DNA of 64,000 nucleotides from an uncultured bacterium (GCA_964423505.1 CAYREX010000001.1:100861-164860); one strand, 5' to 3'; numbered from the stretch's first letter, positions 7,625 through 35,120 are shown. The notes: a model not told the origin generated them from the letters alone. A program made the numbers and translations.

Positions 7625-8266
7625 CTAGAAGGAGGTCTTGATGTCGGCCCAGGTGGAGCGCTGCACCGGTACCCCGTAGTTGTAGTGGACGGTTCCGTTC
7701 CACTCGCGGTAGGAGAAGACGCTGCCCGGAGGGAAACCCTCGGCGAGGCCCCTGTAGGTGGTTATCTCCAGGTCGGAGTTGTTGTAGGTGGTCGGCCCGC
7801 CGTTGGTGTAGTAGAACCCGCCGGTGCCGCTGACCGCCTCCTCCGCGGTGATGATGATGCCGATGACGTCGCCGGTGCTCATCTGGAGCCCGCCCACGTC
7901 TATGTGGGTAGGGTTGTTGATGCCCTGGCCGACGACGCTGTCGACGCCGAGCTCGGTCCAGCCGCTGGCGTTCTGCTCGAACCCGTTGGCGGTGCCCTCC
8001 CGCCAGTAGACGTGGACCGTCCAGAGTGAGACTTCGGTGCCGAGGTTCACGTCCCAGCCGACAACCGTGAGGTCGGTCAGGGCCTCCAGGTCGAAGGAGT
8101 TGCCGGCGTAGTTGTTGTTCTGGTTGAACTGCGTCGTGAGATAGGCCTGGCCGGTGGTATCCACCTCTGCGGGAATCGTGAGCGCCGGCGAGCCCCAGGC
8201 GCCGCTGTCCGGCAGAGCCATGGCCGCTGCGGCGAATGCCATGAGGACGAGAGCGAGCTTGAACAC
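7625..8266 (-). CDS. Secreted hypothetical protein, member A of the C-terminal TWxxIKxxF family
   Basis: GTG start with GGGGG SD; signal peptide MFKLALVLMAFAAAAMA; ends ...GVPVQRSTWADIKTSF-COOH. Confidence 0.6.
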   Translation of the reverse strand: MFKLALVLMAFAAAAMALPDSGAWGSPALTIPAEVDTTGQAYLTTQFNQNNNYAGNSFDLEALTDLTVVGWDVNLGTEVSLWTVHVYWREGTANGFEQNASGWTELGVDSVVGQGINNPTHIDVGGLQMSTGDVIGIIITAEEAVSGTGGFYYTNGGPTTYNNSDLEITTYRGLAEGFPPGSVFSYREWNGTVHYNYGVPVQRSTWADIKTSF

Positions 8267-8439
8267 GGAGAACCCCCTTCGTCTGTGCGAGACCGCGGGC
8301 CTCTGCCGATGTGCCGTGGACCCTTCGGTCTCACGTAACCCCTGAGAACATGACGACCGATACCTCTATACGCAGGGGCACCATGGGTTGTCAATGTCGG
8401 GTGGCCCGCCGCGGCGCTGCCGGCGTTGCCCCGCCAGGC

Positions 8440-8543
8440 GGGCTTGCGCACTGCAGATATATTGTCTATATTTGCTTTTAGTAGTTTTATATAGTTCATG
8501 TATTGAAGCGATACTGGAATTTCAGGCATGGAAGGAAGAAACG
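8440..8543. promoter_or_regulatory. AT-rich intergenic island (divergent promoter region)
   Basis: Run cagatatattgtctatatttgcttttagtagttttatatagttcatgtattgaag in a 70% GC background, immediately upstream of the 8544 CDS with SD GGAAGGA. Confidence 0.4.
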
Positions 8544-8786
8544 ATGCTCAGAAAGCAGCAGAAGCGTCTCGAGGGAATGGCGGAGAGCGGCATGACGGAC
8601 CTCGACAGGCTCAGGAGAGCCGAGGACAGGCTGGAGAAGCTGCGGAGCGAGCTGGCCACGCTGGACGGCGACCTGAGAGACATGGCCGAGGAGATGGGCG
8701 TCAGGGCGAACTCCAGGGGCTCCCTCCAGGACAACGGACTCTCGGGCGGTACCGGGGAGAGGCTCGAGGGTTCCGGCGAGCGGTAG
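8544..8786 (+). CDS. Small coiled-coil hypothetical protein (80 aa)
   Basis: ATG preceded by GGAAGGAAG SD; heptad-like charged sequence LRRAEDRLEKLRSELATLDGDLRDMAEEM. Confidence 0.45.
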   Translation: MLRKQQKRLEGMAESGMTDLDRLRRAEDRLEKLRSELATLDGDLRDMAEEMGVRANSRGSLQDNGLSGGTGERLEGSGER

Positions 8787-8871
8787 GAGACGCAAGGGGC
8801 CTGGCGCGGGTACGGCGCGGCAACCACATCGAGCGGAAGGGGGATAGGCTCAGACGGCGGAGAGGCACGAC

Positions 8872-9543
8872 ATGGCAGACATGAAGGCGTTCTTGATGAA
8901 GAGGATAGGCGAGGTCGGCTTCGTGGAGAAGGAGATGCCCGCCGCCCCCGGTCCCAACGAGGCGACAGTGCGGACCACGGCCGCGCTCGTATGCACCTCG
9001 GACACCCACACGGTCTCGGGGGCCATAGGGCCCAGGGAGAACCTGACCCTCGGCCACGAGGCGGTTGGGATCGTGGAGGAGCTCGGCAGCGCGGTCAAGG
9101 GCTTCGAGCCGGGGGAGAGGGTTGCCGTCAACGCGATCACCCCCGACTTCATCTGCAGCAACTGCCAGAGGGGCTACCCCTCCCAGTAGGGCGTCGACTC
9201 CGCAATCGAGTCGCTGGGCGCCCAGGCCACCTTCGAGGCATGCGTGGCGGTCACCAGGCCGGGCGGCACCATCTCGAACATCGGCTACCACGGGGAGGGT
9301 GAGTACGTCGGGATACCCAGGGCCGAGTGGGGGGTGGGCATGTCCGACAAGACTATAAGGACCGCACTCTGTCCCGGTGGCAGCCAGCGGATGGAGAGGC
9401 TGTTCAGGCTGATGAGCAGGGGAAGGGTCGACCCGACGCCGATGACCACCCACCGGATGCCCTTCGAGGACATCGAGAGGGCATTCCTGATGATGAGGGA
9501 CAAGACAGACGACATCATCAAGCCCCTCATCACGTTCGGATAG
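8872..9543 (+). pseudogene. Zn-dependent secondary alcohol dehydrogenase (TbADH-like) remnant: in-frame TAG plus about 140-aa internal deletion
   Basis: N-part 8872-9189 (GHEAVGIVEELG, structural-Zn loop CSNCQRGY) and C-part 9190-9543 (GVDSAIESLG...KPGGTISNIGYHGEGE...LCPGGSQRMERL...DIIKPLITFG) are in the same frame, separated only by TAG at 9187-9189; the Rossmann GxGxxG region is absent. Confidence 0.65.
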
Positions 9544-9579
9544 GCTGAGGCGCAAGCGGGCTCGGCCGGGGCCGCGCCC

Positions 9580-10767
9580 TCACCCGGCGGGTGCCAGCTC
9601 CAGGTAGCCCTTCGGCGCCAGCGCGGTCGCCAGCATGATGGAGCTTATGTCCCGGTGAGCGCTCCAACCCGGGAGGCTTCGGCTCTCCGGGGCGCTCCAG
9701 TAGCGCACCACGTCCTCTCCGAGCTGCATCCTGTCGGCCAGCCCTGCCAGCAGGTCACCGGAGCGGGCGACCCCGGGCGAGCCGTCACCAGCGTCGGGGC
9801 AGAGCTCCTCCATGATGGCCACGCCGGAGAGGCCGATTGCCAGGCCCAGCTCCCTGAAGGCCAGACGCTCGCCACGCCCCGGAGCGAAAGACCCGCCGGG
9901 CGCCATCCTCTCCAGCCCGTTCCCGGCGGCGCGGAGCAGCGCCGGAAGGAGCCCGTCCGTTCCCTCAAGCCCCTCCCGGCGGAGCTGGCAGACCGTGGCG
10001 GCGGCGGTCAGCAGGCCGCCCACCCCCAGCGGGTCGGTGGTCTCCAGGGGAGCTCCCTCCACCATACCGGCGTAGGTTGCTGCCCACTGCTCCATCAGGG
10101 AGCGGCCGGGCGAGCCCGGCCCTTCCAGCGACCTCGCGGTGGACGCCAGCTGCAGGCATGTCACCAGCCCGTCCACCGGGTCGTGCTGTCCCATTGATGG
10201 CACCAGCGGGTACGAGAGGTCGGTGCTGAGCTTCCAGAACATGGCAGCGGCACCGCCCGCCGTCCTGAAGACGAAAGCCCTCCCGGCCCGGTCCATCAGC
10301 TCCCTGGACCAGGAGCGGTACTTCTCCTCTGCCGTGCGGCGGGCGACGGCATCGAGCGCATGGGCCCACCTGGAGAGGTAGTGGAAGTACTGACCGTCCC
10401 TCTCCCATTCCAGCATCGGGTCGTACCGCCCGCTCTCCGGCCGCTCCGGCAGACGCTTGCCTATCCTGAGCCCGCCCGCGGTAGGTCGAGCCTCCCCCTC
10501 TCCTTCCGGCAGACCGCTTATCCAGCCGGACCTGTGATCGTCCTCCCGGTACCTCCCCAGCGTGTGGTGTACCTGGTCCACGAGCGAAACGGCCCGCTGC
10601 AGCAGGGAGGGATCCTCCATGGCCTCCGACAGGCCGAGGAGGTTGCATACGGCGAAGGCGTCCGTCCATAGGTAGCGGCGGGGCGGGAGGTCAGAGGTCA
10701 GCCCGGTCTCCCGCATGAACCGCTCCATCAGCTCCGCGGCCCTCTCCAGGCGCTCCACTCCGGTCAT
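9580..10767 (-). CDS. Hypothetical protein (possibly alpha/alpha-barrel glycosidase-like); co-operonic with flavoprotein
   Basis: 395-aa ORF with consistent codon usage; ATG overlaps stop of upstream gene (ATGA at 10764-10767); motifs YLWTDAFAVCNLLGL, GQYFHYLSRWAHAL; no confident family assignment. Confidence 0.5.
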   Translation of the reverse strand: MTGVERLERAAELMERFMRETGLTSDLPPRRYLWTDAFAVCNLLGLSEAMEDPSLLQRAVSLVDQVHHTLGRYREDDHRSGWISGLPEGEGEARPTAGGLRIGKRLPERPESGRYDPMLEWERDGQYFHYLSRWAHALDAVARRTAEEKYRSWSRELMDRAGRAFVFRTAGGAAAMFWKLSTDLSYPLVPSMGQHDPVDGLVTCLQLASTARSLEGPGSPGRSLMEQWAATYAGMVEGAPLETTDPLGVGGLLTAAATVCQLRREGLEGTDGLLPALLRAAGNGLERMAPGGSFAPGRGERLAFRELGLAIGLSGVAIMEELCPDAGDGSPGVARSGDLLAGLADRMQLGEDVVRYWSAPESRSLPGWSAHRDISSIMLATALAPKGYLELAPAG

Positions 10768-12203
10768 CCTCCCGCCCCGTGACCACCGGCCCCGGCATCC
10801 CGACCGGCAAAGGCCATCTCGGGTCGCAACGGCCCCCCGGAACCGGGACTCAGCTTAGAGGCAAGGCCCCTGAGGGCGGACCTGAGCCCCTCCTCGACAG
10901 TGGGGTGGTAGTAGGGCGCCCGGAGCATGTCGCGCACCGTGAGCCGACCGGTCAACCCCAGGGCAAGGAGATGGGCCATGTGCTCGGCGCCGGGGGCGAC
11001 CAGGGCGGCACCGCTCAGCATGCCGTCCTCGGCGGATGCGAACACCCTCACCAGCCCGGAGTCGGCGCCGGTCATCGCCGCCCTGCCCTGGCCCCGCATG
11101 TCGGCCTCGCCGACCAGGACGCCCCGGTCGTCCTCTCCAGCGGGGACGGACCCGACGGATGCTATGCCGGGCCTCGTGAAGACCACGCTCATGGGTACCC
11201 TCCTGACGAAGGCATCGGGCTCGGCCGCCAGCGCGTTCCAGCCCGCTATCCTCCCGTCGTCGGATGCCACGTGCAGGAGCGGCTCCCTGCCGTTGGCGTC
11301 TCCGGCTATGAAGACCGGGAGACCGCCTACCCGGAGGGTGGCCGGGTCGTGCTCGGGCACGCCCCGGTCGTCCAGAGGTACCCCGAGGACATCCAGTCCG
11401 AGGTCGTCCAGGGTCGGCCTCCTCCCCACCGAGGCCAGCACGGCGTCGAACCTCTCGGTCTCCCCCTCCACCGTTACCTCCACGCCGTCAGCGACCGGTG
11501 ACAGCTTCACCTGCGCGCCGAGGCGCATCGGGAGCTCCCCCCCGATTATGCGCGCTGCGGCCTCGGCCACCGCCGGGTCCTCGATGCCACCGATGGAGCC
11601 GGAGGCGTCGAAGCCCCGGACCCTCACCCCGAGCCTGGCAAGGGCCTGGGCCATCTCCAGGCCCAGCGGTCCGAGCCCCACCACGGCCATGCTCTCCGGC
11701 AGGTCATCCATCTCGAAGAGGTCGTCGCTGGTCAGCAGCCTGTCGCCCAGCTCCCTCCACGGGGCGGGGACAACCGGCTCCGAGCCGGTGGCCACTATCA
11801 CGCTGCCCGCCTCTATCCTGCGTCCCTCCACCTCCAGGAGCCCCGGTTCCAGGAACCTGGCGGTGCCGCGGACGAGCCTGTCACCCATGTCGGCGGTGGC
11901 CCGGAGCGTGCTCTGCACGAAGCCGTCCCTCCTGTCCCTCACCCAGGCCATCACCTTCTTCGTGTCAGCCGGGAGGCTGTCGGCGCCCCTGATCCCGACC
12001 TCCGCCAAAAGCTCCCTGGCGTGAAGGGCGGCGGCCGTCTCTATCAGGGTCTTGGAGGGCATGCAGCCCACCCTGGCGCAGGTGGTCCCGAGGGGGCCGC
12101 GGTCGACGAGCACGAAGCTCGAGCCGGAGCCGCGGACCTGGGAGAGGGCGGAGAGGCCGGCGGTCCCGGCACCGATTATCGCCACATCGCATTTCATATC
12201 CAT
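10764..12203 (-). CDS. Class I pyridine nucleotide-disulfide oxidoreductase, dihydrolipoyl dehydrogenase-like
   Basis: FAD motif VAIIGAGTAGLSA; redox-active disulfide GTTCARVGCMPSK; NAD-site GxGxxG (VVGLGPLGLE); C-terminal dimerisation HPTVEEG; ATG at 12203 with AGGAGAG SD (ORF-track start at 12212 is GTG). Confidence 0.8.
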   Translation of the reverse strand: MDMKCDVAIIGAGTAGLSALSQVRGSGSSFVLVDRGPLGTTCARVGCMPSKTLIETAAALHARELLAEVGIRGADSLPADTKKVMAWVRDRRDGFVQSTLRATADMGDRLVRGTARFLEPGLLEVEGRRIEAGSVIVATGSEPVVPAPWRELGDRLLTSDDLFEMDDLPESMAVVGLGPLGLEMAQALARLGVRVRGFDASGSIGGIEDPAVAEAAARIIGGELPMRLGAQVKLSPVADGVEVTVEGETERFDAVLASVGRRPTLDDLGLDVLGVPLDDRGVPEHDPATLRVGGLPVFIAGDANGREPLLHVASDDGRIAGWNALAAEPDAFVRRVPMSVVFTRPGIASVGSVPAGEDDRGVLVGEADMRGQGRAAMTGADSGLVRVFASAEDGMLSGAALVAPGAEHMAHLLALGLTGRLTVRDMLRAPYYHPTVEEGLRSALRGLASKLSPGSGGPLRPEMAFAGRDAGAGGHGAGG

Positions 12204-12287
12204 ATGAAGCACCTCTCCTGCACATAGTGTCGGTTGGAGATGTCTAATGTATCATTCAGACTACCATGAGGCTGGGGCAATGTCAAA

Positions 12288-12304
12288 GGGCGGGCGCCCC
12301 GCCT
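12288..12304 (-). terminator. GC hairpin GGCGGG-cgc-CCCGCC abutting GT2 stop, followed by TTTGACATTG on the minus strand
   Basis: 6-bp GC stem directly 3' of stop 12304; short U-tract; TTGACA -35-like hexamer follows. Confidence 0.3.
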
Positions 12305-13209
12305 CAGCGCCGAACGGCTCCCAGCAGGAGGGCCCTGGCGAAGCGCAGGCGGTCCCTGCCGTTCGGGACCGAGGGGTCCAGCTCCCTGCACCTCCGGTAC
12401 CGGCGCACGTACTCCCGGTACTTCCCGGAGCGCCAGAGATTGCCCAGGGTCTCCCGGAGGAGCGATGCCTCCGCACGCGGACGCTGCCGCCGGTAGGCCT
12501 CCGGGAGCCAGGGCAGGGAGAAGAGCTTCTCCATGATGGCTTCCCGGGCGCGGTGCATGGCATCCGGGTCCCTGGACTTTCCTCCCGGGTGCCTCCTGCG
12601 CAGGGCCAGCACCCGGTCCACGTACGCGAAGCGGCATCCCCGGGCGGCCATCCGGAGCCAGAGGTCGTAGTCCTCGGCGTTCCGGAGGCTCTCGTCGAAG
12701 CCGCCGGCCGCGTCGAAGCAGCTCCTCCTGAACAGAGGGGTCACGGCCGGTATTACGTTGCCTCCGAGAAGCTCGTAGAGCATGTCCCCGGAGCCCCTGC
12801 GCCGGGCCTTCCGGCGGGACCTCCTCCGACGGGTCTCCCCCGGACCGGGCGGCTCACCGGCGAAGTCGGCGGCGTCGGTGAAGACCAGGTCGCACCCGGT
12901 CTCCCGCATGACCTCCATCTGAACCTCCAGCTTGCGGGGCAGCCAGAGGTCGTCGTGGTTGTGTACGGCGACCAGCTCTCCGCGGGAGCGGGCGATGCCG
13001 TGGTTGAACGCGGAGGCGCATCCGCCGTTATCCTTGCGCATGTAGCGGAGCGAGTCCCCGAAGGCCCGGCAGACCTCCGGCGTCCGGTCGGTGGAGCCGT
13101 CGTCCACCACTATCAGCTCGAAGTCGTCCTCCGTCTGGCGGAGGACGCTCTCCACCGCCTCCGCCAGGAAGTCCTCCCCGTTGTAGACAGGTATCACGAC
13201 GCTAACCAT
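12304..13209 (-). CDS. Glycosyltransferase family 2
   Basis: MVSVVIPVYNGEDFLAEAVESVLRQT...ELIVVDDGSTDRT; DxD-type HNHDD; overlaps upstream gene end by 8 nt. Confidence 0.8.
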   Translation of the reverse strand: MVSVVIPVYNGEDFLAEAVESVLRQTEDDFELIVVDDGSTDRTPEVCRAFGDSLRYMRKDNGGCASAFNHGIARSRGELVAVHNHDDLWLPRKLEVQMEVMRETGCDLVFTDAADFAGEPPGPGETRRRRSRRKARRRGSGDMLYELLGGNVIPAVTPLFRRSCFDAAGGFDESLRNAEDYDLWLRMAARGCRFAYVDRVLALRRRHPGGKSRDPDAMHRAREAIMEKLFSLPWLPEAYRRQRPRAEASLLRETLGNLWRSGKYREYVRRYRRCRELDPSVPNGRDRLRFARALLLGAVRR

Positions 13210-23917: not shown

Positions 23918-24514
23918 ATGAGGTTCGTCGGTATCCTGCTGCTGGCCGCCGCCGCTCTCCCGGGAGCGTTCGCGGACGAGGTGCACAGTTACGACTTCCG
24001 GGAGCTCCCGGAGGGCTGGACCGCCGATCCGGAGTGGTCCTTCGACGCTACCGGCGCTCACGTCGCGGTCTCGGTCAGCTCCGGCGGCCCTCCGGTCTCC
24101 AACAGGGCCGAGATGTCCTCCGGGGACGGCTTCCTGCTGATGCCGGAGGGAACCGACTCGGTGGCGGTGCTCATGGAGTGCTCCCACTCGTTCGACGGGG
24201 GCTACTACTCCGGCGAGGCCTCGGCGATGGTCTACGCAACCGCCATCCTGGACGGGGAGACGCATGCCGTGGTCCTGGAGTACGAGAGCTGGGGCTTCCC
24301 CGGGGACGGCACTGACGCTCTCTACTCCACCTCGTTCGGCGCATCGGAGGGGGACACGCTCTCCTTCGAGCTGTACGCCAGCGCCTCGGCGTACTCCGGC
24401 TGGGCGGAGGCCGCGTGGGACATCGAGTCGATGACCGTCACCGTCTACGGAGCCGCCTCCCTGGCACCCGGCTCGTGGGGGGCCGTCAAGGCCGGCTGGG
24501 GCGAGGAGGGGTGA
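23918..24514 (+). CDS. Secreted hypothetical protein, member D (variant) of the C-terminal TWxxIKxxF family
   Basis: Strong SD AAAGGAGG; signal MRFVGILLLAAAALPGAFA; ends ...VTVYGAASLAPGSWGAVKAGWGEEG. Confidence 0.6.
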   Translation: MRFVGILLLAAAALPGAFADEVHSYDFRELPEGWTADPEWSFDATGAHVAVSVSSGGPPVSNRAEMSSGDGFLLMPEGTDSVAVLMECSHSFDGGYYSGEASAMVYATAILDGETHAVVLEYESWGFPGDGTDALYSTSFGASEGDTLSFELYASASAYSGWAEAAWDIESMTVTVYGAASLAPGSWGAVKAGWGEEG

Positions 24515-24533: not shown

Positions 24534-25022
24534 CTAGTCCCAGACTCCCACGGTCACGAACCGGAGGTCCTCGGCGCCGCACCCGGGGCAGGTGAACGTT
24601 GCGGAGACGGGGTCCGGGACCAGCAGCAGTGTGTCTCCCGGGCATCCCGCTTCATCCTGCAGGTACACCCAGAAGGAGAGCCCGTCCCCCTCGGCCGGCG
24701 TCAGAAGCGAGTCAGGCTCGAAGGTCGACATGGCCTCGATGATCGCCTCGCGGTGCTCCCCGGAGGGAGGTCCCGCCTCGGTGTCCCCGTCTCCGCATCC
24801 CCGCTCCGCCGCGGTCCTCTCCACCAGGTCGAAGAGGACCGTACAGGGCAGGCCGGAGGCGGAGGCTTCGTAGACCTCCCTGACGTATCCCGGCATCCTG
24901 CCCACCCCGTGGAAGACCTCTTCCGTGGTGTGACCGCATATGCCGCAGCTTCCCACCAGGACATCGCCCGCCAGCAGCGGCATGGCCAGCAGCAGGGGCA
25001 TCACTGTCGAACTGAGCCTCAT
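24534..25022 (-). CDS. Small secreted Cys-rich hypothetical protein
   Basis: SD GGAGGAG; signal MRLSSTVMPLLLAMPLLAG; 9 Cys including SCGICGH and TCPGCG. Confidence 0.5.
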   Translation of the reverse strand: MRLSSTVMPLLLAMPLLAGDVLVGSCGICGHTTEEVFHGVGRMPGYVREVYEASASGLPCTVLFDLVERTAAERGCGDGDTEAGPPSGEHREAIIEAMSTFEPDSLLTPAEGDGLSFWVYLQDEAGCPGDTLLLVPDPVSATFTCPGCGAEDLRFVTVGVWD

Positions 25023-25118
25023 CTCTCCTCCATTCCGGTGCGCCTCTGCGGAAGCGCGGGGGAGGCGCATCGACCGGCGTCGCGATGACAGCCCTTGTGG
25101 TTCCCCGCCCGGGAGGCG

Positions 25119-26702
25119 TCACCAGAGCCCCGGATCCTCCGGCAGGCTGTCGATGACCTCCTCGCGGAGGACGATCCCGTGGCGCTCCTCCAGTCGTTGC
25201 ATCCACTCGGCGGCGGCCTCCTCCGAGAGCCTGTACCTGGCCATCTGCTCCAGGTCTATCCGCGCCTCGTCGAAGGTGGCTTCCCTCTCCGGGACCACCT
25301 CCACGAGCCTGAGGAGCAGGAAGTCGCCGGACTGCTCCATCGGGTAGGGACCGTGCCACGTGAGCGTGTCCTCCGGCGGGATGGCGAAGGCCTCCTCGCC
25401 GGCGCCGGCCGGTACGCTGACCATCCTGAGGGGACCGATGACGCCGGGCGGGACATCCTCGCCGGTCACCCAGTCCAGAGGGTCCAGGGAGGAGACCAGC
25501 CCGGCCGTCTCTCCCTCCGTCCCGCTCTGCTCGAGCTCCTCCAGTCGCTCCCCGGGCAATACGGCGGTATCGAAGTATCGGCGCTCCTCGAAGACAGGCG
25601 GCTCCGGCAGGAGCTCCCACTGCTCCTCGAGGTCCTCCCTCTGGACATCCACCTCGCCGACGCTGTCGGCGTACAGCCGCTCGGCCGCAAGCTGGAGAAC
25701 CCAGCTGTCCCGCTCCTCCTCCAGGGAGTCCAGAGTGGAGGGGGACCATTCGAAGAGGGAGTCGACCAGCACAGTCTGCAGCAGCAGGTTGTCGACCAGG
25801 TAGCCGAGCCAGGTGACCGAGCCGGGCTGGACCGGCATTCGCATGCCCAGGTACTCGGCCTCGTAGTGGAGCTCACCCGCGGCCCAGTCGCCCAGGCCGG
25901 ACGAGAGCGCGACGGCTCCCGGGTCGGGCGGCGGCGAGGGGTAGGCCTCGGCCACCGACTGCAGGACCGTTGTGTCCACCTCTACCCCGAGATCCTCCCT
26001 GACGAGGGAGAGGGTACGCATCCTGAAGGCCTGGTACCTGCTGTGAGCGAGCGCCTCTCTGGCCTCCTGGATGACCATGGCGGTATCCGGGACCATTGCA
26101 TCTCCCGGGCCCGCGGGGCTCGTGGTCAGGGAGTCGAGCCTGACCGTGGCCCCGGAGCTGTCAGGGGCCGACTGGCCCGGCTCCAGCGAGTCGAGGAGGG
26201 CGGCCCGTCCCTCCGGTATCTGTGCCCTGTTCACGGGGCCGAACCTGCCCTCGTAGGCGGTGCCCGGCCTCACGGTGAACCAGTAACCGGTGCCCAGGCT
26301 GCCCAGGTACTCCTCCAGGTCCTCGTCGGTGACCGCCTCGGACAGGCGCTCGACCATCATGACCGCGGCCGCGTCCGCAGCCGTGCTCCTCAGCCTCGCA
26401 GCCGATAGGGCCTCGATTTCCGGAGCATCCAGATAGCCGGCCTGCTGCAGCTCACGCTCGACCACGGTCCTCCTCGCCAGCGAGAGCACGAGGCTCCTCG
26501 CAGGGTCCGGCGAGCCCAGGAAGACCTGCCTCTCCTCCCCGGTGAGGCCTGCCCATGCTTCCGCCGCATCGCCTGCGCGCACGGTGTCCCCCGCGGCAAC
26601 GGCCAGCCAGGGGTCGACCGGGGCTTCGGGGGCGGAGCAGGAGCAGAGGAGCAGGGTCGAGATGAGCGCGGATGCCGCTGTCGGGACTGATGCTCTGGTC
26701 AT
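25119..26702 (-). CDS. Lipoprotein, possibly SurA/PpiC-like periplasmic chaperone (tentative)
   Basis: Lipobox LLLCSCS; C-terminal TWHGPYPMEQSGDFLLLRLVEV resembles the end of a parvulin domain; otherwise unassigned. Confidence 0.45.
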   Translation of the reverse strand: MTRASVPTAASALISTLLLCSCSAPEAPVDPWLAVAAGDTVRAGDAAEAWAGLTGEERQVFLGSPDPARSLVLSLARRTVVERELQQAGYLDAPEIEALSAARLRSTAADAAAVMMVERLSEAVTDEDLEEYLGSLGTGYWFTVRPGTAYEGRFGPVNRAQIPEGRAALLDSLEPGQSAPDSSGATVRLDSLTTSPAGPGDAMVPDTAMVIQEAREALAHSRYQAFRMRTLSLVREDLGVEVDTTVLQSVAEAYPSPPPDPGAVALSSGLGDWAAGELHYEAEYLGMRMPVQPGSVTWLGYLVDNLLLQTVLVDSLFEWSPSTLDSLEEERDSWVLQLAAERLYADSVGEVDVQREDLEEQWELLPEPPVFEERRYFDTAVLPGERLEELEQSGTEGETAGLVSSLDPLDWVTGEDVPPGVIGPLRMVSVPAGAGEEAFAIPPEDTLTWHGPYPMEQSGDFLLLRLVEVVPEREATFDEARIDLEQMARYRLSEEAAAEWMQRLEERHGIVLREEVIDSLPEDPGLW

Positions 26703-26801: not shown

Positions 26802-27452
26802 CTAGAAGAGGGTCTTGATGGAGCCCCAGGTGCCCCTGTCGAGAGGGGTGAGCGATCCGTACAGGATGCGGAACATGTCGCTGGGGGCGTAGCCCTGGGA
26901 GGACCACGTAACCCAGCCGGAGTTGTAGAGGTAGCACTCCTGGCCCCTGACGGTGGTCCCGGCCAGGAAGTACCAGGTGTCGGCGCTCTGCCTCTGTACG
27001 GTTATCCAGTAGGTGGTGCCGACGTCTGCGCTGATGGGCGTGCCCGGGGTGCAGTCCGACTCGTACACGGTGTACGAGCCGAAGCTGATGCCGGTGGCGG
27101 TGTTGACTACCGTGGAGGTCACGTCCTCCATCTCGGTGCCCGGACCCGAGCCGGTGTCCTGGTAGAGGAGCGTGCTGCAGGACGTGGGCATGGAGGCGGC
27201 TGTAGTGAGTGTCCAGTAGGTGAGCTCCTGTACCTCTGCGTCGGTGGAGAGCGTCATGTCGTCGGCGGTGACGTAGTCGCCGAAGCTGGCGAACGCGGTG
27301 TCGAGGGCGTCGCCTGCGTCGTATGCGTAGCTGTCGATGTTGTCGTCGGAGCTGGGGTATCCGTAGCTCCCGCTTATCTCGCCGCTTATCGCGGGAGCGC
27401 TGGCGAGAGCCGCCCCGGCAGCAACTACGAGAACCAGAAAGAGAGTCCTCAT
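26802..27452 (-). CDS. Secreted hypothetical protein, member B of the C-terminal TWxxIKxxF family
   Basis: ATG at 27452 with AAGGA SD; signal MRTLFLVLVVAAGAALASA; ends ...ILYGSLTPLDRGTWGSIKTLF-COOH. Confidence 0.6.
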   Translation of the reverse strand: MRTLFLVLVVAAGAALASAPAISGEISGSYGYPSSDDNIDSYAYDAGDALDTAFASFGDYVTADDMTLSTDAEVQELTYWTLTTAASMPTSCSTLLYQDTGSGPGTEMEDVTSTVVNTATGISFGSYTVYESDCTPGTPISADVGTTYWITVQRQSADTWYFLAGTTVRGQECYLYNSGWVTWSSQGYAPSDMFRILYGSLTPLDRGTWGSIKTLF

Positions 27453-27535
27453 CTTCGTCCTTTCCGTCAGGGTAATCCGGTCCATGCTAGAACGTGCTTT
27501 ATACTCGCACGCCCTCGCCTGGTCAATGGGCAGAG

Positions 27536-27557: not shown

Positions 27558-27574
27558 CCAACGGCGGTCAGACG

Positions 27575-27820: not shown

Positions 27821-28019
27821 GACTCGCTCCGTTCCTATGGGGCCGTTGCCCCACGCTCTCCGGGTCCATCCCGGTTCTCGGCGCTCCCGCCGCAGGTCCG
27901 GCCAACAGGGCCGGTCGTAACTGGATTAGGCTGCAACTGACCGGGCGTGCTCTTGATGGAGGGCAGCAACCTGTGCAGTAGCCGTAATCGGGCAGATTAT
28001 ACCCACTACGGGATTCGGG

Positions 28020-28859: not shown

Positions 28860-28908
28860 CGATCCCCCTTCTTCGGTCTGCGGATGGCGCGGGTACTCCT
28901 CAACTCAC

Positions 28909-30216
28909 TCAGATGTAACCCAGGTCCCTGAGCGCCGGCGCAACATCGATGTCCGACATGACCGGCTCGTACCTCCTGGGCGTTAGCCAGTAGCTCTCCA
29001 GGCGGGCCTGCAGCGCCGAGTCGGGGTCCAGGGGCTCCAGCTCCTCAGGATCCCTGTCAAGCCTGTACATCACGGTGCTGTCCGTGGCCGGGACCCAGAC
29101 GACCTTCCGATGGCCGACCCGCATTGAGGCCATCTGGAAGGGGGGGCCCGTGTTGACGCCGCTGGCGGGGAGCGCTCTCTCATTCGCCGGTGGACCGGAA
29201 AGGAGGTCCCGTCCCGCCAGATCCGGGGGCGGCTCCGTACCGGCGGCGGCGAGCATCGTGGGGAGGATGTCCAGCTGGGAGGCGATCCAGTCAGGCTCGT
29301 ATCCCTCGTGGACGCCGGGTCCGGAGAGGATGACGGGAACCCTGGTAATCTCCTGGAACATCGTCCTGCCATGCTCGACGTAGCCGTGCTCCAGGAACTC
29401 CTCGCCGTGGTCGGCGGTGACTATCACGAGCGTGGCGTCCTGGATGCCCTGCCTGCGGAGCTCCGCCCAGAGGCGGGAGAGCTGGCTGTCGGTCCAGGCT
29501 ATCTCCCCGTCGTAGAGGTCCACCATCCTGTCCCTCAGCGTTGTGTCGGCCACCGCACCCTCCGGAGTGAAGGTCCAGCTCACCGGCCCGTCGTCGCTCC
29601 CGGCGAAGAGCGTATCGTAGGGCGGCGGCGGATCGTACGGGGAGTGCGGGTCGAACAGGTGCATCACCAGCAGGAAGGGCTCACCCCCGCCCGGACGGGT
29701 CCTGAGCCAGTCTATGGCCGTGTCGACGGTCTCCCCCGCCATACCGTGTCCCTGGTCGTTGCATGCGTAACGATCGAACCCCCGGTGGAAGCCCATGCTC
29801 TCGCTCAGGAGCATCACGTTGAAGAGGCCCATGGTGCTGTAGCCGTCGCCGCCCAGGACGGCTGCCGCCGTCGGCATCTCGGACGACGGCATCCAGAGCG
29901 TGCGGTCCTGGACGTCGAGCCTGGCACCGTGGCCCCTGGGGGTCAGGCCGGAGAGCATGGTGGTCACTGCCGGGAGAGTCCAGGAGGACTGGGCCTTGGT
30001 CCTCGACCACATTGCGCCGGCGGCAGCGAGGCTGTCCAGCCCCGGGGAGGTGTCCCTCGGATAACCGTAGCAGCCCATGTGGTCCGCCCTGAGGGTGTCC
30101 ACTATCACCAGCACGATGTTGGGCCTGCCGACCCGGGGGGCCGCGCAGGAGGCGCCCAGGAGCGGTACCAGCAGAAGCGCCCCGAGAACGTTTCTCAGCC
30201 TCGAACGAAGGAGCAT
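28909..30216 (-). CDS. Sulfatase-like hydrolase/transferase (alkaline phosphatase superfamily) with non-canonical nucleophile motif
   Basis: N-terminal PNIVLVIVDTLRADHMGCYGY...PGLDSLAAAGAMW is sulfatase-like, but the expected C/S-x-P-x-R is replaced by SSWTLPAVTTMLSGLTPRGHG (NPP-like T/S-containing segment); lipoprotein-like signal LLGASCAAP. Confidence 0.7.
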   Translation of the reverse strand: MLLRSRLRNVLGALLLVPLLGASCAAPRVGRPNIVLVIVDTLRADHMGCYGYPRDTSPGLDSLAAAGAMWSRTKAQSSWTLPAVTTMLSGLTPRGHGARLDVQDRTLWMPSSEMPTAAAVLGGDGYSTMGLFNVMLLSESMGFHRGFDRYACNDQGHGMAGETVDTAIDWLRTRPGGGEPFLLVMHLFDPHSPYDPPPPYDTLFAGSDDGPVSWTFTPEGAVADTTLRDRMVDLYDGEIAWTDSQLSRLWAELRRQGIQDATLVIVTADHGEEFLEHGYVEHGRTMFQEITRVPVILSGPGVHEGYEPDWIASQLDILPTMLAAAGTEPPPDLAGRDLLSGPPANERALPASGVNTGPPFQMASMRVGHRKVVWVPATDSTVMYRLDRDPEELEPLDPDSALQARLESYWLTPRRYEPVMSDIDVAPALRDLGYI

Positions 30217-30469
30217 CCGTCTCCAGAAGCGATGGTTTGCGCAGGGAGGCCGAGCATGGATGCGGCCGCGACACTGGACGGTGTGACGACGAACCGGTCC
30301 TGCGGGGGACCGCTCACTCTTCCCCACGGGTCGGGGACCGCTCTGAGCGGAGGCCGACCGGATAACGACTCTCGGATACGATAGGACGAGGAGCTGACCT
30401 GGTCAAGCTGCCGGCACCCGACCGTGGTCCGCGGGCACGAGACCGACTGCGTCAGCGCACCACACCATG

Positions 30470-30600
30470 CATCATTGACAATCGTATAGAATTGCGTATC
30501 TCATATTAGAGGATATATGACATCTTGAATATTGCATGTACAGAAACGGGATAGTTTGTATATTGATTTAATAGTAATTATTTCAACATTAGAGCGCCGG
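30470..30600. promoter_or_regulatory. AT-rich divergent promoter island
   Basis: About 130 bp of roughly 25% GC (ttgacaatcgtatagaattgcgtatctcatattagaggatatatgac...gtttgtatattgatttaatagtaattatttcaac); candidate -35 TTGTAT, 17 bp, -10 TATTTC upstream of 30699. Confidence 0.45.
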
Positions 30601-30698
30601 GGCGTACGGCGACGAAGGTGGAAGATGACCGCAACATGGATTCCCTTCGGTGCATGGGGCATCGGCACCTGCACCGGGGGAGCGACAGGAGGTGAGAG

Positions 30699-31160
30699 AT
30701 GAGGCTTGGCAGCTCGGCATTCGAGGGGGGCGGCACGATCCCGGAGAGACACGGATACTACGGGGACAACGTGAGCCCTCCGCTGGAGATCGGCGATGTC
30801 CCGCCAGATGCGGAGTCGCTGGCCCTGGTGGTCGACGACCCGGACGCGGTGGAGCCGGCGGGCAAGGTCTGGGACCACTGGGTGATGTGGGGGATACCCC
30901 CGGCAACGGAGCGCATCGAAGAGGGGGGTCCGGTATCCGGTGCCATCGAGGGCGTCAACGACTTCGGGGAGAATGGCTACGGCGGTCCTGCGCCGCCCGA
31001 CGGTGAGCACACCTACAGGTTCAGGCTCTACGCGCTGGACACCGGTCTTGACCTGCCTCCCTCCGCCGGGAAGGCCGAGCTGGAGGACGCGATGGAGGAC
31101 CACGTGCTGGAGAGCGTCGAGCTCACCGGCAGGTTCGCCCCCGGGGGCGGCCGCTCGTGA
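30699..31160 (+). CDS. YbhB/YbcL family PEBP (Raf-kinase-inhibitor-like) protein
   Basis: Conserved HTYRFRLYALD and WDHWVMWGIPP segments. Confidence 0.8.
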   Translation: MRLGSSAFEGGGTIPERHGYYGDNVSPPLEIGDVPPDAESLALVVDDPDAVEPAGKVWDHWVMWGIPPATERIEEGGPVSGAIEGVNDFGENGYGGPAPPDGEHTYRFRLYALDTGLDLPPSAGKAELEDAMEDHVLESVELTGRFAPGGGRS

Positions 31161-31230
31161 GAGTGGTCGGCGTATCCGGACCCTCGACGCAGATGGAAGC
31201 AACCGACGAAACGGGAACGAAAGGCAGGAT

Positions 31231-31584
31231 ATGGCGCAGTATCACGAGCCGGTAGAGGAGCTCTCCCCGGAAGACCGGGACGTCGTCAGGGCTCTCACGA
31301 GCCTGAAGGAGGAGATAGAGGCCATAGACTGGTACCACCAGAGGGTGGCGACCGCCTCCGACGGGGAGCTGCGGGACATCCTGGCCCACAACAGGGACGA
31401 GGAGATAGAGCACGCCTGCATGGCCCTCGAGTGGCTCAGGCGAATGTCCCCCGCCTGGGACGGGAACCTCAGGACCTACCTCTTCACCGAGGGAGCCGTG
31501 ACGGCCCTCGAGGAGGGGGAGGAAGAGGGAGACGGAAGCGAAGACAACTCGGCTGCCGGCCTGGGCGTCGGCAGCCTCAGATGA
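31231..31584 (+). CDS. Encapsulated ferritin-like protein (EncFtn/Flp) cargo with C-terminal encapsulin targeting peptide
   Basis: EEIEAIDWYHQRV...ILAHNRDEEIEHACMALEWLRR matches EncFtn metal-ligand helices; C-terminal AAGLGVGSLR matches the family-1 cargo-loading motif LGIGSL[KR]; stop 20 nt before shell gene. Confidence 0.85.
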   Translation: MAQYHEPVEELSPEDRDVVRALTSLKEEIEAIDWYHQRVATASDGELRDILAHNRDEEIEHACMALEWLRRMSPAWDGNLRTYLFTEGAVTALEEGEEEGDGSEDNSAAGLGVGSLR

Positions 31585-31604
31585 TCGATGGGAGAGCGCA
31601 CGCG

Positions 31605-32396
31605 ATGGACATCCTGAAGAGAGAGCTGGCACCGATAACCGAGAAGGCCTGGGAAGAGATAGACGAGCAGGCGCGCCTGGTCCTCCGCAATCACCTGACG
31701 GCGAGGTGGTTCGTGGACGTGGTCGGACCGCTTGGCAGGGAGAAGGCCTCCGTCAACGACGGCAGGCTGGATATCGTGAGGGATACGACCGAGGGAGTCG
31801 GCTACGGCCTGCGCAAGGCGAAGCCGCTGGTGGAGACCAGGGTCCCCTTCCAGCTGAGCATCATGGAGATGGACAACATCTCCCGCGGCGCAGCCGATGC
31901 CGACCTCTCCCCGCTGGAGGAGGCCATGGCCAGGGCGGCCGGCTTCGAGGACAGCGCCGTCTACTACGGCCTGGAGAAGGCCGGGATAGAGGGCCTCGCG
32001 GACTCCGCGGGGACCAGGCTGCCCGCGCCCGAGGAGGCGAAGGACCTGAGGAGCTCCGTGGCCGAGGGTATCGCTGTCCTGCTCGACTCGTCGATAGAGG
32101 GCCCCTACACGCTCATGGTGGACAGGGAGCTCTGGATGGGCCTCAACAGCATAGACCACGGCTATCCGCTGCTGCGCAAGCTGCGGGAGCAGCTGAGCGG
32201 CCCGCTCTACTACAGCCCGACCCTCGAGAGCTCGTTCCTCGTCTCGGCCAGGGGCGGTGACATGGAGCTCATCCTCGGCCACGACTTCTCCATCGGCTAC
32301 GGGGGCAGCTCAGGAGACGTGCTGGAGCTCTACGCCACCGAGTCCTTCAGCTTCAGGGTGCTGGAGCCGGCGGCAGTGGTAGCCATTGGCGGCTGA
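31605..32396 (+). CDS. Family 1 encapsulin shell protein (HK97 fold)
   Basis: MDILKRELAPITEKAWEEIDEQARLVLRNHLTARWFVDVVGPLG aligns nearly residue-by-residue with the T. maritima encapsulin N-terminus; GPYTLMVDRELW, RGGDMELILGHDFSIGY also conserved. Confidence 0.9.
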   Translation: MDILKRELAPITEKAWEEIDEQARLVLRNHLTARWFVDVVGPLGREKASVNDGRLDIVRDTTEGVGYGLRKAKPLVETRVPFQLSIMEMDNISRGAADADLSPLEEAMARAAGFEDSAVYYGLEKAGIEGLADSAGTRLPAPEEAKDLRSSVAEGIAVLLDSSIEGPYTLMVDRELWMGLNSIDHGYPLLRKLREQLSGPLYYSPTLESSFLVSARGGDMELILGHDFSIGYGGSSGDVLELYATESFSFRVLEPAAVVAIGG

Positions 32397-32445
32397 CCGG
32401 CGTTGACGGAGCGCCGCCTCCCGGGGCGGCCCGGAGGCGACCCTC

Positions 32446-33273
32446 CTAACGGGAGCCCTCCGGGCGCCCCGCGGCTCCCTCTGCCCGATCCGACCGGAGC
32501 AGGCTCCGCAGCACCGAGAGCAGCGCTGCAATCGTCACTGCCATGCATGCTACCGTGGTGTAGACTACGGCCGGATACTCACCGCCGAGACCCCGCTCGG
32601 ATACGTGCCGAAGCAGTATCCCGCCGTACGCCCAGAGGGCGACCAGCCCCCACGCCGGGTCCCTCAGGCGCCAGACGGACATGACTGTGATCGCCACGCC
32701 GACCAGCAGGACGGCCACCGTCCAGAAGGCCTGGGAGAGTCTGAGCCCGCCCCATCCGAGCCCGACCAGCATGACGGTCGCGTTGGCGATTGTCGCGACG
32801 GTGATCCAGCCGAGGTAGACCCCGAAGGGAATCGCGACAAGGAGCGTCTCAGGCGCCGGCAGGGGCAGCCTGCCGACCGTGAGCCGGATGAAGAGGAGGC
32901 TCAGGAGCAGTACCGCCATCAGCACCATGGTGACCGGTATCAGCATGTGGTGCCAGGCGATGATCCAGGCGGCGTTCGCGACGCAGGACACCGCGAACAG
33001 CATCCTTATCCGCCGCCTCGACCGGGGAGAGAGACGCTCGCTCCTCCGCCATGACGGCGTGAGCTGGTAGACGACGAAGCCGGCCAGGAGCAGGTATATG
33101 AGACCCCAAACGGAGAAGGTCACCGGCGCCGGGGCGAACAGGTTGGAGTAGGCGTCGGACACCTCACCCGTGGTCATCCCCCCTATGGGCAGCGCGTTCG
33201 CCAGGACGTTCACGGCCACCATGAGCAGGTAGGCCGCGACCACCACAGCACCCGGAATCCTCTCGTCATCCAC
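32446..33273 (-). CDS. Trp-rich polytopic membrane protein, TspO/MBR-like (tentative)
   Basis: LFAPAPVTFSVWGLIYLLLAGF and multiple W-containing TM helices; longer than canonical TspO. Confidence 0.4.
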   Translation of the reverse strand: MDDERIPGAVVVAAYLLMVAVNVLANALPIGGMTTGEVSDAYSNLFAPAPVTFSVWGLIYLLLAGFVVYQLTPSWRRSERLSPRSRRRIRMLFAVSCVANAAWIIAWHHMLIPVTMVLMAVLLLSLLFIRLTVGRLPLPAPETLLVAIPFGVYLGWITVATIANATVMLVGLGWGGLRLSQAFWTVAVLLVGVAITVMSVWRLRDPAWGLVALWAYGGILLRHVSERGLGGEYPAVVYTTVACMAVTIAALLSVLRSLLRSDRAEGAAGRPEGSR

Positions 33274-33294
33274 GGTTCGACTTCCTCTCGGTTC

Positions 33295-34470
33295 TCATGG
33301 AATGCTCGGCTCGGCCTCCGTCGGCGCCGATTGCCCCAGCCTCGCCTTGCGGAGCAGGAGAGCGGGCAGCAGGAGCACGTCAGCGACCAGAAGCAGGGCG
33401 GCCCCGTTGTAGGGTCCGTAGCCGCCTGCCGCATTCAGCATCGGTACGGTCCCGAGTATCATGGAGAGGACAACCGCCGTCGTAACGGCCGCCCGCGCCG
33501 GGTTGCCGCGCGAAGTCCGGCGCAGCCGCACGAGCGCCGTCACCTGGCAGTAGGGCAGGTAGACGAAGTAGTGCGGCCAGCTCGTCTTGAGGATGAAGGG
33601 CAGACAGAGCAGGCCGCAGCAGAGGAACAGCTCGGTGTCCTCTCCCCCCTCCTCGCGTCCTCTCATGAACAGCTCCCTGATGACCAGCACCGGGACGACC
33701 GCGCTTGCGGCGCACAGCATCACATGCGGGAGCCCCTCCCCCAGGGCGGGCCAGAGCCGCCCGAGCACGTTGGGCGCATATAGCGAGTTCACGCTCCGGG
33801 CCACCCAGGGGGCGACGACGATGCTCCCGGCGGAGCTCCGCTCGAACTCCCACAGCCCGGCCGGGGAGAGGACCAGCGCCGGCAGCAGCAGCATGGACGC
33901 GGCGGCGACGGCGAAGACGGCCAGGGTCCTCCGGTCCCTGCGGTAGAGATAGTAGACGGCGAAGAGGGCGGGGTAGAACTTGACCGCCGCCGCCAGCGCG
34001 AGGAGAAGCGCCGAGGCCAGGGGCCTCCTGTCGTAGATGAGCAGCGAGGCGATTACGAGAACGGTCACCGGCGTGCTCACCTGCCCCCATCTGAAGTTGT
34101 GCAGGACCGGCACCGATGTGATCACAAGCAGGTAGTAGAGCAGACCAAGCAGCCGGGAGCGCCTGCCCAGCCTGCGCATCGGGACTGCGACCAGCAGCGC
34201 CACGAAGAGCATCTGCAGTGCACCCCACGCGAACGCGGCATCCGTCCGCGGGAGAAGTCCGAGCGGGGATATGAGCAGGGCGAAGAAGGCGGAGTACATG
34301 TACCAGGTGGATGGCTCTCCGGTCGTCAGGACAGCCGATGCCGTCGGGTACATGTGACGGTTGAAGTCCTCCATCATGAGGCTCCCCTCGTCCATGGCGG
34401 CGGTGAAGCTCCCGGAGTCGGGCCAGACGAGCATGTAGTAGAGGGCGACGAGAACGGTGAGCAGCACGGC
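33295..34470 (-). CDS. Integral membrane glycosyltransferase-like protein (DUF2029/GT87-like, tentative); start uncertain
   Basis: More than 10 TM helices; AGGAGG SD near 34495 but no well-placed start; the ORF-track 5' region overlaps the upstream gene and is rejected. Confidence 0.45.
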   Translation of the reverse strand, partial: AVLLTVLVALYYMLVWPDSGSFTAAMDEGSLMMEDFNRHMYPTASAVLTTGEPSTWYMYSAFFALLISPLGLLPRTDAAFAWGALQMLFVALLVAVPMRRLGRRSRLLGLLYYLLVITSVPVLHNFRWGQVSTPVTVLVIASLLIYDRRPLASALLLALAAAVKFYPALFAVYYLYRRDRRTLAVFAVAAASMLLLPALVLSPAGLWEFERSSAGSIVVAPWVARSVNSLYAPNVLGRLWPALGEGLPHVMLCAASAVVPVLVIRELFMRGREEGGEDTELFLCCGLLCLPFILKTSWPHYFVYLPYCQVTALVRLRRTSRGNPARAAVTTAVVLSMILGTVPMLNAAGGYGPYNGAALLLVADVLLLPALLLRKARLGQSAPTEAEPSIP

Positions 34471-34511
34471 GGCGATGGGGACGGAGCACCTCCTGATGGC
34501 TCCGGGAGATA

Positions 34512-35120
34512 TCAGAACGCCCCCTTCAGGCCTCCCCACGTGCTCTGGTCGAGCGGAGCCCCCGAGTAGGACATGACAAGCTGGGGACGCATGTCCGGGT
34601 GCGTCGGCGTGTCGCTGGACCATGCGGTGAACCAGTTCGTGATACCGGTGTCGAAGAGGCAGAAGCCGTGCTGGTCCAGGGTCCCGTCCAGCCAGGCCTG
34701 TACGATGTCGGTCACGTCGTAGTTCACCCATCCTGTCCCGACCGGGTAGTCGACGTCCCTCTCCCAGACCAGTGCGGGCATGTTGTCCCAGTCTATGATG
34801 CCCTCGTCCCAGAAGGTCGTGCAGGCCCCCAGCCTGAGGGTCCCGCCTGCGCCGTGGCCTATGACCCCCAGGGCGAGGTATGCGGAGTGGACGGTGGCGT
34901 TCTCGTAGTGGGGATCGTCCAGCTCCACGAACTCGATGAAGACTGCATGCTGCCCGCCGGCGAAGAAGCCGCAGGCGAGGGTGTCGGAGTCGCCCGTGTT
35001 CAGGCCTGGCAGCGCCTCGGAGGTGTAGGCGTCCTTGCCCAGCTCTCCGTCTGGCTGGAAGACGGCAACGTCCGCGTTTGCAAGGAACGCCAGAAGCACA
35101 AGGGCTGCCGTCGCTCTCAT
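34512..35120 (-). CDS. Secreted hypothetical protein, member C of the C-terminal TWxxIKxxF family
   Basis: ATG at 35120 with AAGGAAG SD; signal MRATAALVLLAFLANA; DNRLRE-like IDWDNMP segment; ends ...VMSYSGAPLDQSTWGGLKGAF-COOH. Confidence 0.6.
   Translation of the reverse strand: MRATAALVLLAFLANADVAVFQPDGELGKDAYTSEALPGLNTGDSDTLACGFFAGGQHAVFIEFVELDDPHYENATVHSAYLALGVIGHGAGGTLRLGACTTFWDEGIIDWDNMPALVWERDVDYPVGTGWVNYDVTDIVQAWLDGTLDQHGFCLFDTGITNWFTAWSSDTPTHPDMRPQLVMSYSGAPLDQSTWGGLKGAF

Follow-up and report, generated by a model that had tools for sequence, protein, structure and literature searches.

The window analysed here, a 64,000-nucleotide stretch of DNA from an uncultured bacterium (GCA_964423505.1 CAYREX010000001.1:100861-164860), encodes four small secreted proteins, A to D, which share a short C-terminal tail with a TWGxIK core. 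This tail is a real and modular terminal tag, selected at the peptide level and carried by Sec-exported, mostly single-domain lectin-like proteins; it is common to several uncultured phyla and absent from the Pfam and NCBIfam libraries that were searched. Furthermore, it is structurally separable from the protein body, tied to the presence of signal peptides and restricted to these lineages. From its modularity, position and conservation, and from the signal peptides that accompany it, we lean towards the view that the tail is a modular docking or sorting tag, read after Sec export by a receptor encoded at an unlinked locus. The initial annotation of the window had proposed a lineage-specific sorting, anchoring or processing tag. 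The tag itself is well supported and its function is what we infer from the features just named, while "lineage-specific" has to give way to a distribution across several candidate phyla.

Four tail proteins of the window

The four open reading frames (ORFs) listed in the initial annotation are all present on translation. Gene A (7625-8266, minus strand) encodes a 213-aa exported protein composed of a signal peptide, a β-sandwich body resembling PHR and CBM6 (residues ~41-197) and the tail. The 216-aa exported product of gene B (26802-27452, minus strand) has a weakly choice-of-anchor-R-like body, and that of gene C (34512-35120, minus strand), at 202 aa, has a DNRLRE/CBM96 domain (residues 29-184) followed by the tail. 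Finally, gene D (23918-24514, plus strand) encodes a 198-aa exported protein with a diverged tail and a body without family match. The four proteins terminate in QRSTWADIKTSF (A), DRGTWGSIKTLF (B), DQSTWGGLKGAF (C) and PGSWGAVKAGWGEEG (D). The tails proper, delimited by ORF translation and motif search, are PVQRSTWADIKTSF in A (7628-7669, minus strand), PLDRGTWGSIKTLF in B (26805-26846, minus strand), PLDQSTWGGLKGAF in C (34515-34556, minus strand) and SLAPGSWGAVKAGWGEEG in D (24458-24511, plus strand); the last retains an SWGAVK core, has W as its aromatic residue and bears four extra residues at its end.

Six-frame translation of the window revealed exactly four matches to the pattern [STG]W[GA].[IVLM]K..[FWY], all of them 0-4 residues from a stop codon, which bears out the earlier placement of the tail at or within four residues of the C-terminus. 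When the window was subjected to 200 base shuffles, the mean number of matches was 0.02 anywhere and zero at a terminal position, compared to the four observed. As a rough guide, the window holds one tail gene per 16 kb, while D and B lie 2.3 kb apart.

Each of the four genes was said to possess its own Shine-Dalgarno sequence and signal peptide, and inspection by eye agrees: a Shine-Dalgarno-like purine run precedes each of A, B, C and D, and all four N-termini are of the Sec type, with a K/R-containing n-region, a hydrophobic core and an AxA-like site. The putative signal peptides, read from the sequence with inferred cleavage sites, are MFKLALVLMAFAAAAMA for A (8216-8266, minus strand), MRTLFLVLVVAAGAALASA for B (27396-27452, minus strand), MRATAALVLLAFLANA for C (35073-35120, minus strand) and MRFVGILLLAAAALPGAFA for D (23918-23974, plus strand). 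The homologues of A have ...ALA or ...AFA followed by DSGA in common. Promoter-like sites of the form TTGAC[AC]-N17/18-TATNNN at A, B and C, and hairpin terminators at A and B, were likewise identified by eye.

The bodies of the four proteins fall into four separate clusters in an all-versus-all BLAST comparison, consistent with the earlier statement that they are not obviously alignable. Searches against Pfam and NCBIfam showed that the CBM96 domain of C stops at residue 184 of 202, before the tail; B gave a sub-threshold choice-of-anchor-R match, and A and D matched no model in either library. No Pfam or NCBIfam model overlaps the tail in A-D or in 61 representatives from related loci (see below). 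Full-length homologue searches retrieved two proteins for B and three for C, and were uninformative as regards the "choice of anchor" assignment.

An AlphaFold2 model of A, based on a 44-sequence alignment, presents a β-sandwich at residues 41-197 with a predicted local distance difference test (pLDDT) score above 90, and Foldseek relates this body to the PHR and CBM6/35 folds. The tail is modelled at a pLDDT of ~55 as a two-turn helix (W206-S212) detached from the body; as predicted, it is a flexible appendage and not a strand of the fold. The hydrophobic moment of the tail is 0.5-0.6 when calculated for a helix, as against 0.2-0.5 for a strand. In the helical arrangement, W, I(+3) and F(+7) share one face and the Thr is a possible N-cap. 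Short docking helices typically show such an i, i+3, i+7 triad.

The family of A is of particular value since it was gathered by body similarity and hence carries no bias toward the tail. Of its 44 members, approximately 34 or 35 are tail-bearing, and all of these retain [ST]W[GA]x[IL]K followed by 3-5 residues, mostly with F or Y at K+3. Distant homologues without the tail either end straight after the body (…WNGTVHYVK) or bear an unrelated Cys-rich helical module. In the remaining families, the tail is present in all 12 members of the B family found in Fermentibacteria loci, and the B homologue P0002 retains ALERGTWGNIKSTF; the C orthologues P0052 and P0053 also retain it (DFDQDTWGGLKTGI and SLDQSTWAAVKNSF), and the D homologue P0007 has the canonical ending PVSRSTWGAIKAL. 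The window is placed in Fermentibacterota on the strength of its named homologues only. The possibility, raised beforehand, that the tail is the last strand of one shared family is contradicted by the untailed homologues of A, by the detached tail in the AlphaFold2 model and by the 58 sequence clusters described below.

The Cys-containing module of the distant A homologues is an observation in its own right. In P0046, P0047, P0049 and P0050, a helical C-terminal module of ~50 aa (…TTCASEGYTGTKLTWCKNICE…LPYCA) replaces the TWGxIK tail on the same β-sandwich body; it matched no NCBIfam model, and may be an alternative, likewise undescribed, C-terminal module.

Conservation, codon use and spread of the tail

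The consensus of the tail is (P)-x-x-[LV]-[EDQ]-x-x-[TS]-W-[GA]-x-[ILV]-K-x-x-[FY] followed by 0-2 residues, amounting to ~9-14 residues at the extreme C-terminus. In the sequence logo, the positions before the Trp are P at -8, L or K at -5, E, L, Q or D at -4, and T at -1 (133 of 140). From the Trp onwards there follow G (129 of 140, otherwise A), a variable residue, I (126 of 140, otherwise L or V), K, one of A, S or T, a second variable residue and F (117 of 139). Since W and K were preset by the search pattern, their logo counts are no evidence, and the claim that they are invariant rests on the sets found by body homology. The number of residues after the Lys is exactly three in 127 of 140 tails and at most seven. 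Outside the search seeds, the relaxed core [ST]W[GA].[ILVM]K occurs 43 times in the fetched loci, in 33 cases no more than 12 residues from a stop codon. The others are an ABC permease or chance matches, and the core is therefore essentially never internal.

Replacement of the Lys by Arg was observed in none of 33 unbiased tails and in no member of the A family. A metagenome scan with Arg or Ser codons at this position returned 120 matches, nearly all of them short ORFs that match by chance; one or two are plausible R variants, namely L172 (which is identical to L231 and has the Poribacteria-style …KATTTWGSIRSAF) and possibly L202. As a rough estimate, calibrated on the real-to-chance ratio of the Lys pattern and drawing on two different collections, Arg takes the place of Lys in ~1% of tails or fewer.

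The tails draw on every synonymous codon of T, G, I, K and F and on all three stop codons, which argues that selection acts on the peptide. The stop codons are nevertheless unevenly employed: TGA terminates 13 of 100 tail genes versus 146 of 321 other ORFs of the same loci, and its avoidance in Fermentibacteria has an odds ratio of 0.16 (p = 2e-7). The preferred stop of tail genes is TAG in Fermentibacteria and TAA in Poribacteria. High expression could account for this avoidance of TGA, as could selection against read-through, since a tag extended in that way would be buried.

In order to establish the distribution of the tail, a degenerate DNA pattern encoding T-W-G-x-I-K-x-x-F-stop was scanned over one genome per GTDB species (185,579 species). 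The scan yielded at least 119 matching stretches, and all counts of taxa, clusters and ORFs derived from it refer to the matches listed. A real tail ORF (at least 90 aa, with the tail at its end) is present in 107 of these 119 stretches; the other 12 are chance matches, or a gammaproteobacterial ABC permease whose "stop" is TGG. The best represented lineages are Fermentibacteria, Aegiribacteria and Sabulitectum, which together account for at least 41 stretches, followed by Poribacteria with at least 22. Lineages with names in Latescibacter- contribute at least six, metagenome-assembled genomes (MAGs) with names in Gemmatimonad- at least three, Coatesbacteria at least three, and Eisenbacteria, Krumholzibacteriia and UBP1 at least one each. 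Furthermore, at least 26 stretches belong to MAGs without a lineage label and at least three to oddly named MAGs. The motif, for which a test of enrichment had been suggested, is strongly enriched, lineage-restricted in this species scan and obligately terminal.

The same pattern matched nine times in the 2.9 million viral contigs of IMG/VR, in each case within an ORF of 22 aa or fewer. Among giant viral contigs of ~94-357 kb (L122, L125 and L126), an 11-codon ORF of the form V[TPS]TWGRIKA[AT]F-stop recurs; rather than a tail protein, it is probably a conserved gene read in the wrong frame.

The passengers of the tail are highly diverse. The 144 tail ORFs recovered from ~870 kb of fetched loci form 58 BLAST clusters, whose representatives include Beta_helix, Laminin_G_3, Lamin-tail (LTD), FGE-sulfatase, CHRD, DUF4350 and CBM9 domains, and, in addition, CBM96, MAM, Big_5, F5/8-type-C and 3-keto-disaccharide hydrolase domains; some have no known domain. 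A heuristic detected a signal-peptide-like N-terminus in 93 of 103 full-length tail proteins, with a lipobox-like sequence in only three, and the median length of the tail proteins is 242 aa. Two or more tail genes occur in 30 of 108 loci, and in 19 of those 30 the bodies are unrelated. When the class is defined as signal-peptide proteins with [ST]-W-[GA]-x-[ILV]-K no more than eight residues from the C-terminus, it comprises A-D and at least 140 further ORFs in related genomes.

A profile of the tail alone (31 positions) was also compared with 1.84 billion representative proteins. It produced six matches at E≤0.001, five of them body homologues of A, B or D; so few matches are explained by the profile being too short to reach significance at that database size. 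The profile also matched P0004, a 165-aa signal-peptide protein with three repeats (…LNSLSPLQRGLWGKIKDKV…), whose sequence suggests a precursor that contains several copies of an amphipathic unit of the antimicrobial-peptide kind. Only local resemblance to the tail brought it up, and it is probably unrelated. Full-text literature searches for the motif, and for sorting signals in these phyla, gave nothing relevant.

A proposed docking tag and its rivals

If the tail is a docking or sorting tag, the following sequence of events can be envisaged. The passengers would be small, single-domain, Sec-exported proteins, for the most part lectin/CBM-like β-sandwiches (CBM, carbohydrate-binding module) together with β-helices. 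Following export and cleavage of the signal peptide, the flexible tail would fold as a Thr-capped two-turn helix, or else bind in an extended form, and would offer the W/I(+3)/F(+7) triad, together with the invariant Lys, to a dedicated receptor in the envelope, the gene for which would lie elsewhere in the genome. This receptor might then dock the passenger on an envelope or surface structure, or pass it to an outer-membrane translocation step. On this view, the tail would serve the envelope of Fermentibacterota, Poribacteria, Latescibacterota and related bacteria much as a dockerin or KDEL tag does, in miniature. The likeness to dockerin-cohesin pairs and to KDEL or PTS1 tags is a functional analogy only, in that a small terminal module sends many passengers to one receptor; there is no relation in sequence or structure.

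Several points weigh against this reading. The receptor, the destination of the passengers and any cleavage of the tail are what we infer from the features of the tail, and the strict conservation of T-W-G-x-I-K could equally fit the substrate site of an enzyme that performs processing or covalent attachment. Signal peptides were called by a simple heuristic and by eye. The tail helix is a low-confidence AlphaFold2 prediction, and the model of C, built on a three-sequence alignment, reached a pLDDT of 33 and was discarded. The counts and the taxonomic range obtained from the GTDB scan are lower bounds. Finally, no gene family recurs across phyla among the neighbours in the 119 loci, and any receptor must therefore be encoded elsewhere.

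One rival, which we consider unlikely, is an in-plane membrane anchor, in which the tail, as a short amphipathic helix at the membrane interface, would by itself hold the passenger on the periplasmic side and no protein receptor would be needed. The predicted helix, with its moment and with W, I and F on one face, would suit such an anchor, and the tail profile also matched the repeat precursor P0004, whose …LQRGLWGKIKDKV… units resemble membrane-active amphipathic peptides. The closest functional rivals are anchors of the type found in the C-terminal helix of PBP5/DacA and the membrane-targeting sequence of MinD, which, like the tail, consist of a short terminal helix with an aromatic/aliphatic face and Lys. 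These anchors are 10-18 aa long and poorly conserved, whereas the tail has 8-9 aa with near-invariant positions. Two turns of helix would partition weakly; a rough Wimley-White estimate, made by hand and including the penalty of the C-terminal carboxylate, gives ~-3 to -4 kcal/mol. In addition, the invariant Lys falls within the hydrophobic face. Lipid-binding helices tolerate many substitutions, whereas five positions of the tail (T, W, G, I and K) hardly vary from phylum to phylum, with Arg almost never in place of the Lys; such constancy points to a protein, and not lipid, as the partner that recognises the tail.

A low probability is also given to a processing or attachment site, whereby a periplasmic or surface enzyme would read T-W-G-x-I-K, trim the last residues and link the protein, via the Lys or the new C-terminus, to peptidoglycan, lipopolysaccharide (LPS) or lipid. 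Its functional kin would be the attachment of Lpp through its Lys to peptidoglycan by L,D-transpeptidases and transpeptidation of the PorU type. The effective invariance of the Lys, which is not swapped for Arg, accords with such a site, as do the obligatory near-C-terminal position and the greater variation after the Lys (two to seven residues, of varying identity) than before it; the avoidance of TGA, too, fits selection for a precise C-terminus. Set against this is the conserved aromatic residue at K+3, F in most tails and F or Y in most of the A family, which would be unexpected in a stub that is discarded. No transpeptidase or peptidase is consistently linked to the tail genes, Peptidase_C25 neighbours being present in only four loci, and at least one R variant (L172) is apparently intact. 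Attachment strictly of the Lpp type, in which the linking Lys is the C-terminal residue, was rejected for the gene product, where the Lys lies 3-8 residues from the end.

It is very unlikely that the tail is a stability or quality-control tag, read by a PDZ-containing periplasmic protease of the Prc/CtpA or DegP/Q type that would set turnover or maturation. PDZ domains bind hydrophobic extreme C-termini, and both the position of the tail and its hydrophobic last residue recall such ligands. Conservation is lowest, however, in the final residues (the last being F, Y, R, Q, L, D, K or N), and the conserved core lies 4-9 residues from the end; moreover, a degron shared by dozens of unrelated passengers across phyla is hard to explain.

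Mimicry of the β-signal, by which the tail would engage the β-barrel assembly machinery (BAM) or the translocation and assembly module (TAM) in the manner of the C-terminal strand of outer-membrane barrels, is still less credible. The β-signal of outer-membrane proteins (OMPs) resembles the tail in its terminal aromatic residue, usually Phe, which is frequent in the tails as well. It differs in its alternating hydrophobic residues (-1, -3, -5 and -7, ending in F or W) and in its location on transmembrane β-barrels: in the logo, counted from the end, the hydrophobic positions of the tail are -1 (F), -5 (I) and -8 (W), with A/S/T at -3, Lys at -4 and G at -7, and the bodies are soluble β-sandwich or CBM domains. 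Indeed, true OMPs of the same lineages end in alternating signals, as exemplified by a porin (L120, ...YTDIYANWRMNF) and an OMP_b-brl protein (L111, ...FFVNIQLPFEWSTIF).

The window also encodes a family 1 encapsulin shell (31431-32396, plus strand; Linocin_M18, 2.3e-72; NCBIfam encap_f1, 4.6e-77), and the tail might conceivably load its bearers into this shell as a cargo peptide. Like the tail, family 1 cargo peptides are portable, extreme C-terminal peptides of ~10 aa on a short linker, found on varied passengers, and they dock into a receptor groove. They have a loosely similar hydrophobic-G-x-hydrophobic-K core, and we take the W-G-S-I-K core of the tail to be loosely comparable to the I-G-S-L-K core of known cargo peptides. 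Encapsulin cargo is cytoplasmic, without a signal peptide, with interchangeable K and R and with few representatives per genome, whereas K and R are not interchangeable in the tail, and tail genes are too numerous (four in 64 kb, with 30 of 108 related loci holding more than one). Approximately 90% of tail proteins possess Sec signal peptides, as do A-D when judged by eye, and their passengers are of extracytoplasmic type (CBM, LamG, β-helix). None of the four tail genes shares an operon with the shell gene; the nearest, C, is 2 kb away on the opposite strand, behind two unrelated genes. Since the signal peptides imply that tail proteins leave the cytoplasm, where encapsulins assemble, the link was rejected as extremely improbable. 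The gene upstream of the shell (30699-31160, plus strand) belongs to the PEBP family and has no obvious cargo-loading peptide.

Finally, the notion that the tail is the last element of one shared domain, or a chance similarity, is virtually eliminated by the 58 clusters and many Pfam families among the matches listed, the untailed A homologues that end at the body, the modelled tail outside the fold and the four motifs against 0.02 expected in the window.

Known C-terminal signals and neighbouring genes

The initial annotation had set the tail apart from the C-terminal domain (CTD) of the type IX secretion system (T9SS), from sortase and exosortase signals and from the β-signal of OMPs, and this holds: the tail matches no profile, has no membrane span and does not alternate. 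The T9SS CTD (type A, TIGR04183/PF18962; type B, TIGR04131) resembles it in being modular, C-terminal and borne by Sec-exported CBM, LamG, β-helix and Ig-like passengers of FCB-group lineages. With 70-100 aa folded into an Ig-like domain, the CTD is far larger than the tail, a peptide of 9-14 aa. None of the three models matched A-D at E≤1 or any of the 61 representatives, and a T9SS-type fold has no room in these proteins, with only ~14 residues past the body (C, 184 of 202; A, ~197 of 213). Among the species sampled by the GTDB scan, the Bacteroidota matches listed are chance matches and one probably misnamed MAG. This near absence of Bacteroidota makes a core T9SS component an unlikely reader of the tag. 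An internal occurrence of the motif upstream of T9SS CTDs was considered and rejected, internal occurrences being at chance level in 870 kb of the relevant lineages.

A separate T9SS CTD had been assigned to the protein encoded at 394-2223 (minus strand), and this assignment was not confirmed. The protein is an FG-GAP/VCBS-repeat protein whose last ~80 residues appear T9SS/FlgD-Ig-like by eye; no Pfam or NCBIfam T9SS model matched at E≤0.1.

The signals of sortases, exosortases, rhombosortases and myxosortases (LPXTG, PEP-CTERM, GlyGly-CTERM and MYXO-CTERM) are akin to the tail in that a short C-terminal motif decorates many unrelated secreted passengers and undergoes lineage-limited paralogous expansion. 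These signals combine their motif with a transmembrane helix and a basic tail, whereas the TWGxIK tail has 2-7 residues after the Lys and no hydrophobic span. A C-terminal signal of the type I secretion system was ruled out by the presence of signal peptides and by the lack of RTX families in the Pfam results.

The recurrent neighbours of tail genes, among them a TPR protein, an ABC-2 permease, an FlgD-Ig protein and a PpiC-like lipoprotein, reflect lineage-local synteny. The PpiC-like protein is, in the window, a 527-aa lipoprotein (25119-26702, minus strand) with a sub-threshold match to PpiC-type rotamases (E=0.022), a relationship that would make it SurA/PpiD-like. Its gene directly follows a tail gene of the same orientation both here and in L088, and homologues recur in three more tail-gene loci of Fermentibacteria (L020, L051 and L118); the adjacent tail genes are of different families. 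Between D and the gene for this lipoprotein, and inside the tail-gene cluster that extends from D to B, the window encodes a 178-aa exported protein (24534-25070, minus strand) with two CxxC pairs (CGICGH … CPGCG) and no family match. Adjoining gene A are ORFs of 105 aa (8872-9189, plus strand) and 99 aa (9244-9543, plus strand), which resemble the two ends, N-terminal (ADH_N) and C-terminal, of a zinc-type alcohol dehydrogenase whose middle is absent. They may represent a degraded gene; the same split is present in the independent Logan contig L121.

LPXTG, PEP-CTERM, GlyGly-CTERM and the T9SS CTD were each first spotted as a genomic pattern of this kind, and each then led to dedicated envelope machinery. 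The TWGxIK tag is shorter than these and differently built, with neither a membrane span nor a folded domain. Its absence from Pfam and NCBIfam is probably due to its confinement to phyla with essentially no cultured members. We tentatively entertain the broader possibility that TWGxIK is the address label of an unrecognised post-Sec sorting or surface-display pathway, common to Fermentibacterota, Poribacteria, Latescibacterota, some Gemmatimonadota-like MAGs, Eisenbacteria, Coatesbacteria and Krumholzibacteriia, which would have its own receptor or enzyme, possibly with Lys-specific chemistry, and would serve a considerable part of the secretome. Specific, testable clues to the mechanism come from the near-absolute Lys and from the avoidance of TGA stops. 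If the tail is indeed a sorting or docking signal, its receptor would become a concrete target for phylogenetic profiling and structure-based screening, and the tail itself would supply a minimal 9-residue handle for surface display. Furthermore, it would provide a one-line rule by which to annotate and localise many of the "hypothetical" secreted lectin-like proteins of the Fermentibacteria of anaerobic digesters and the Poribacteria that live as sponge symbionts.

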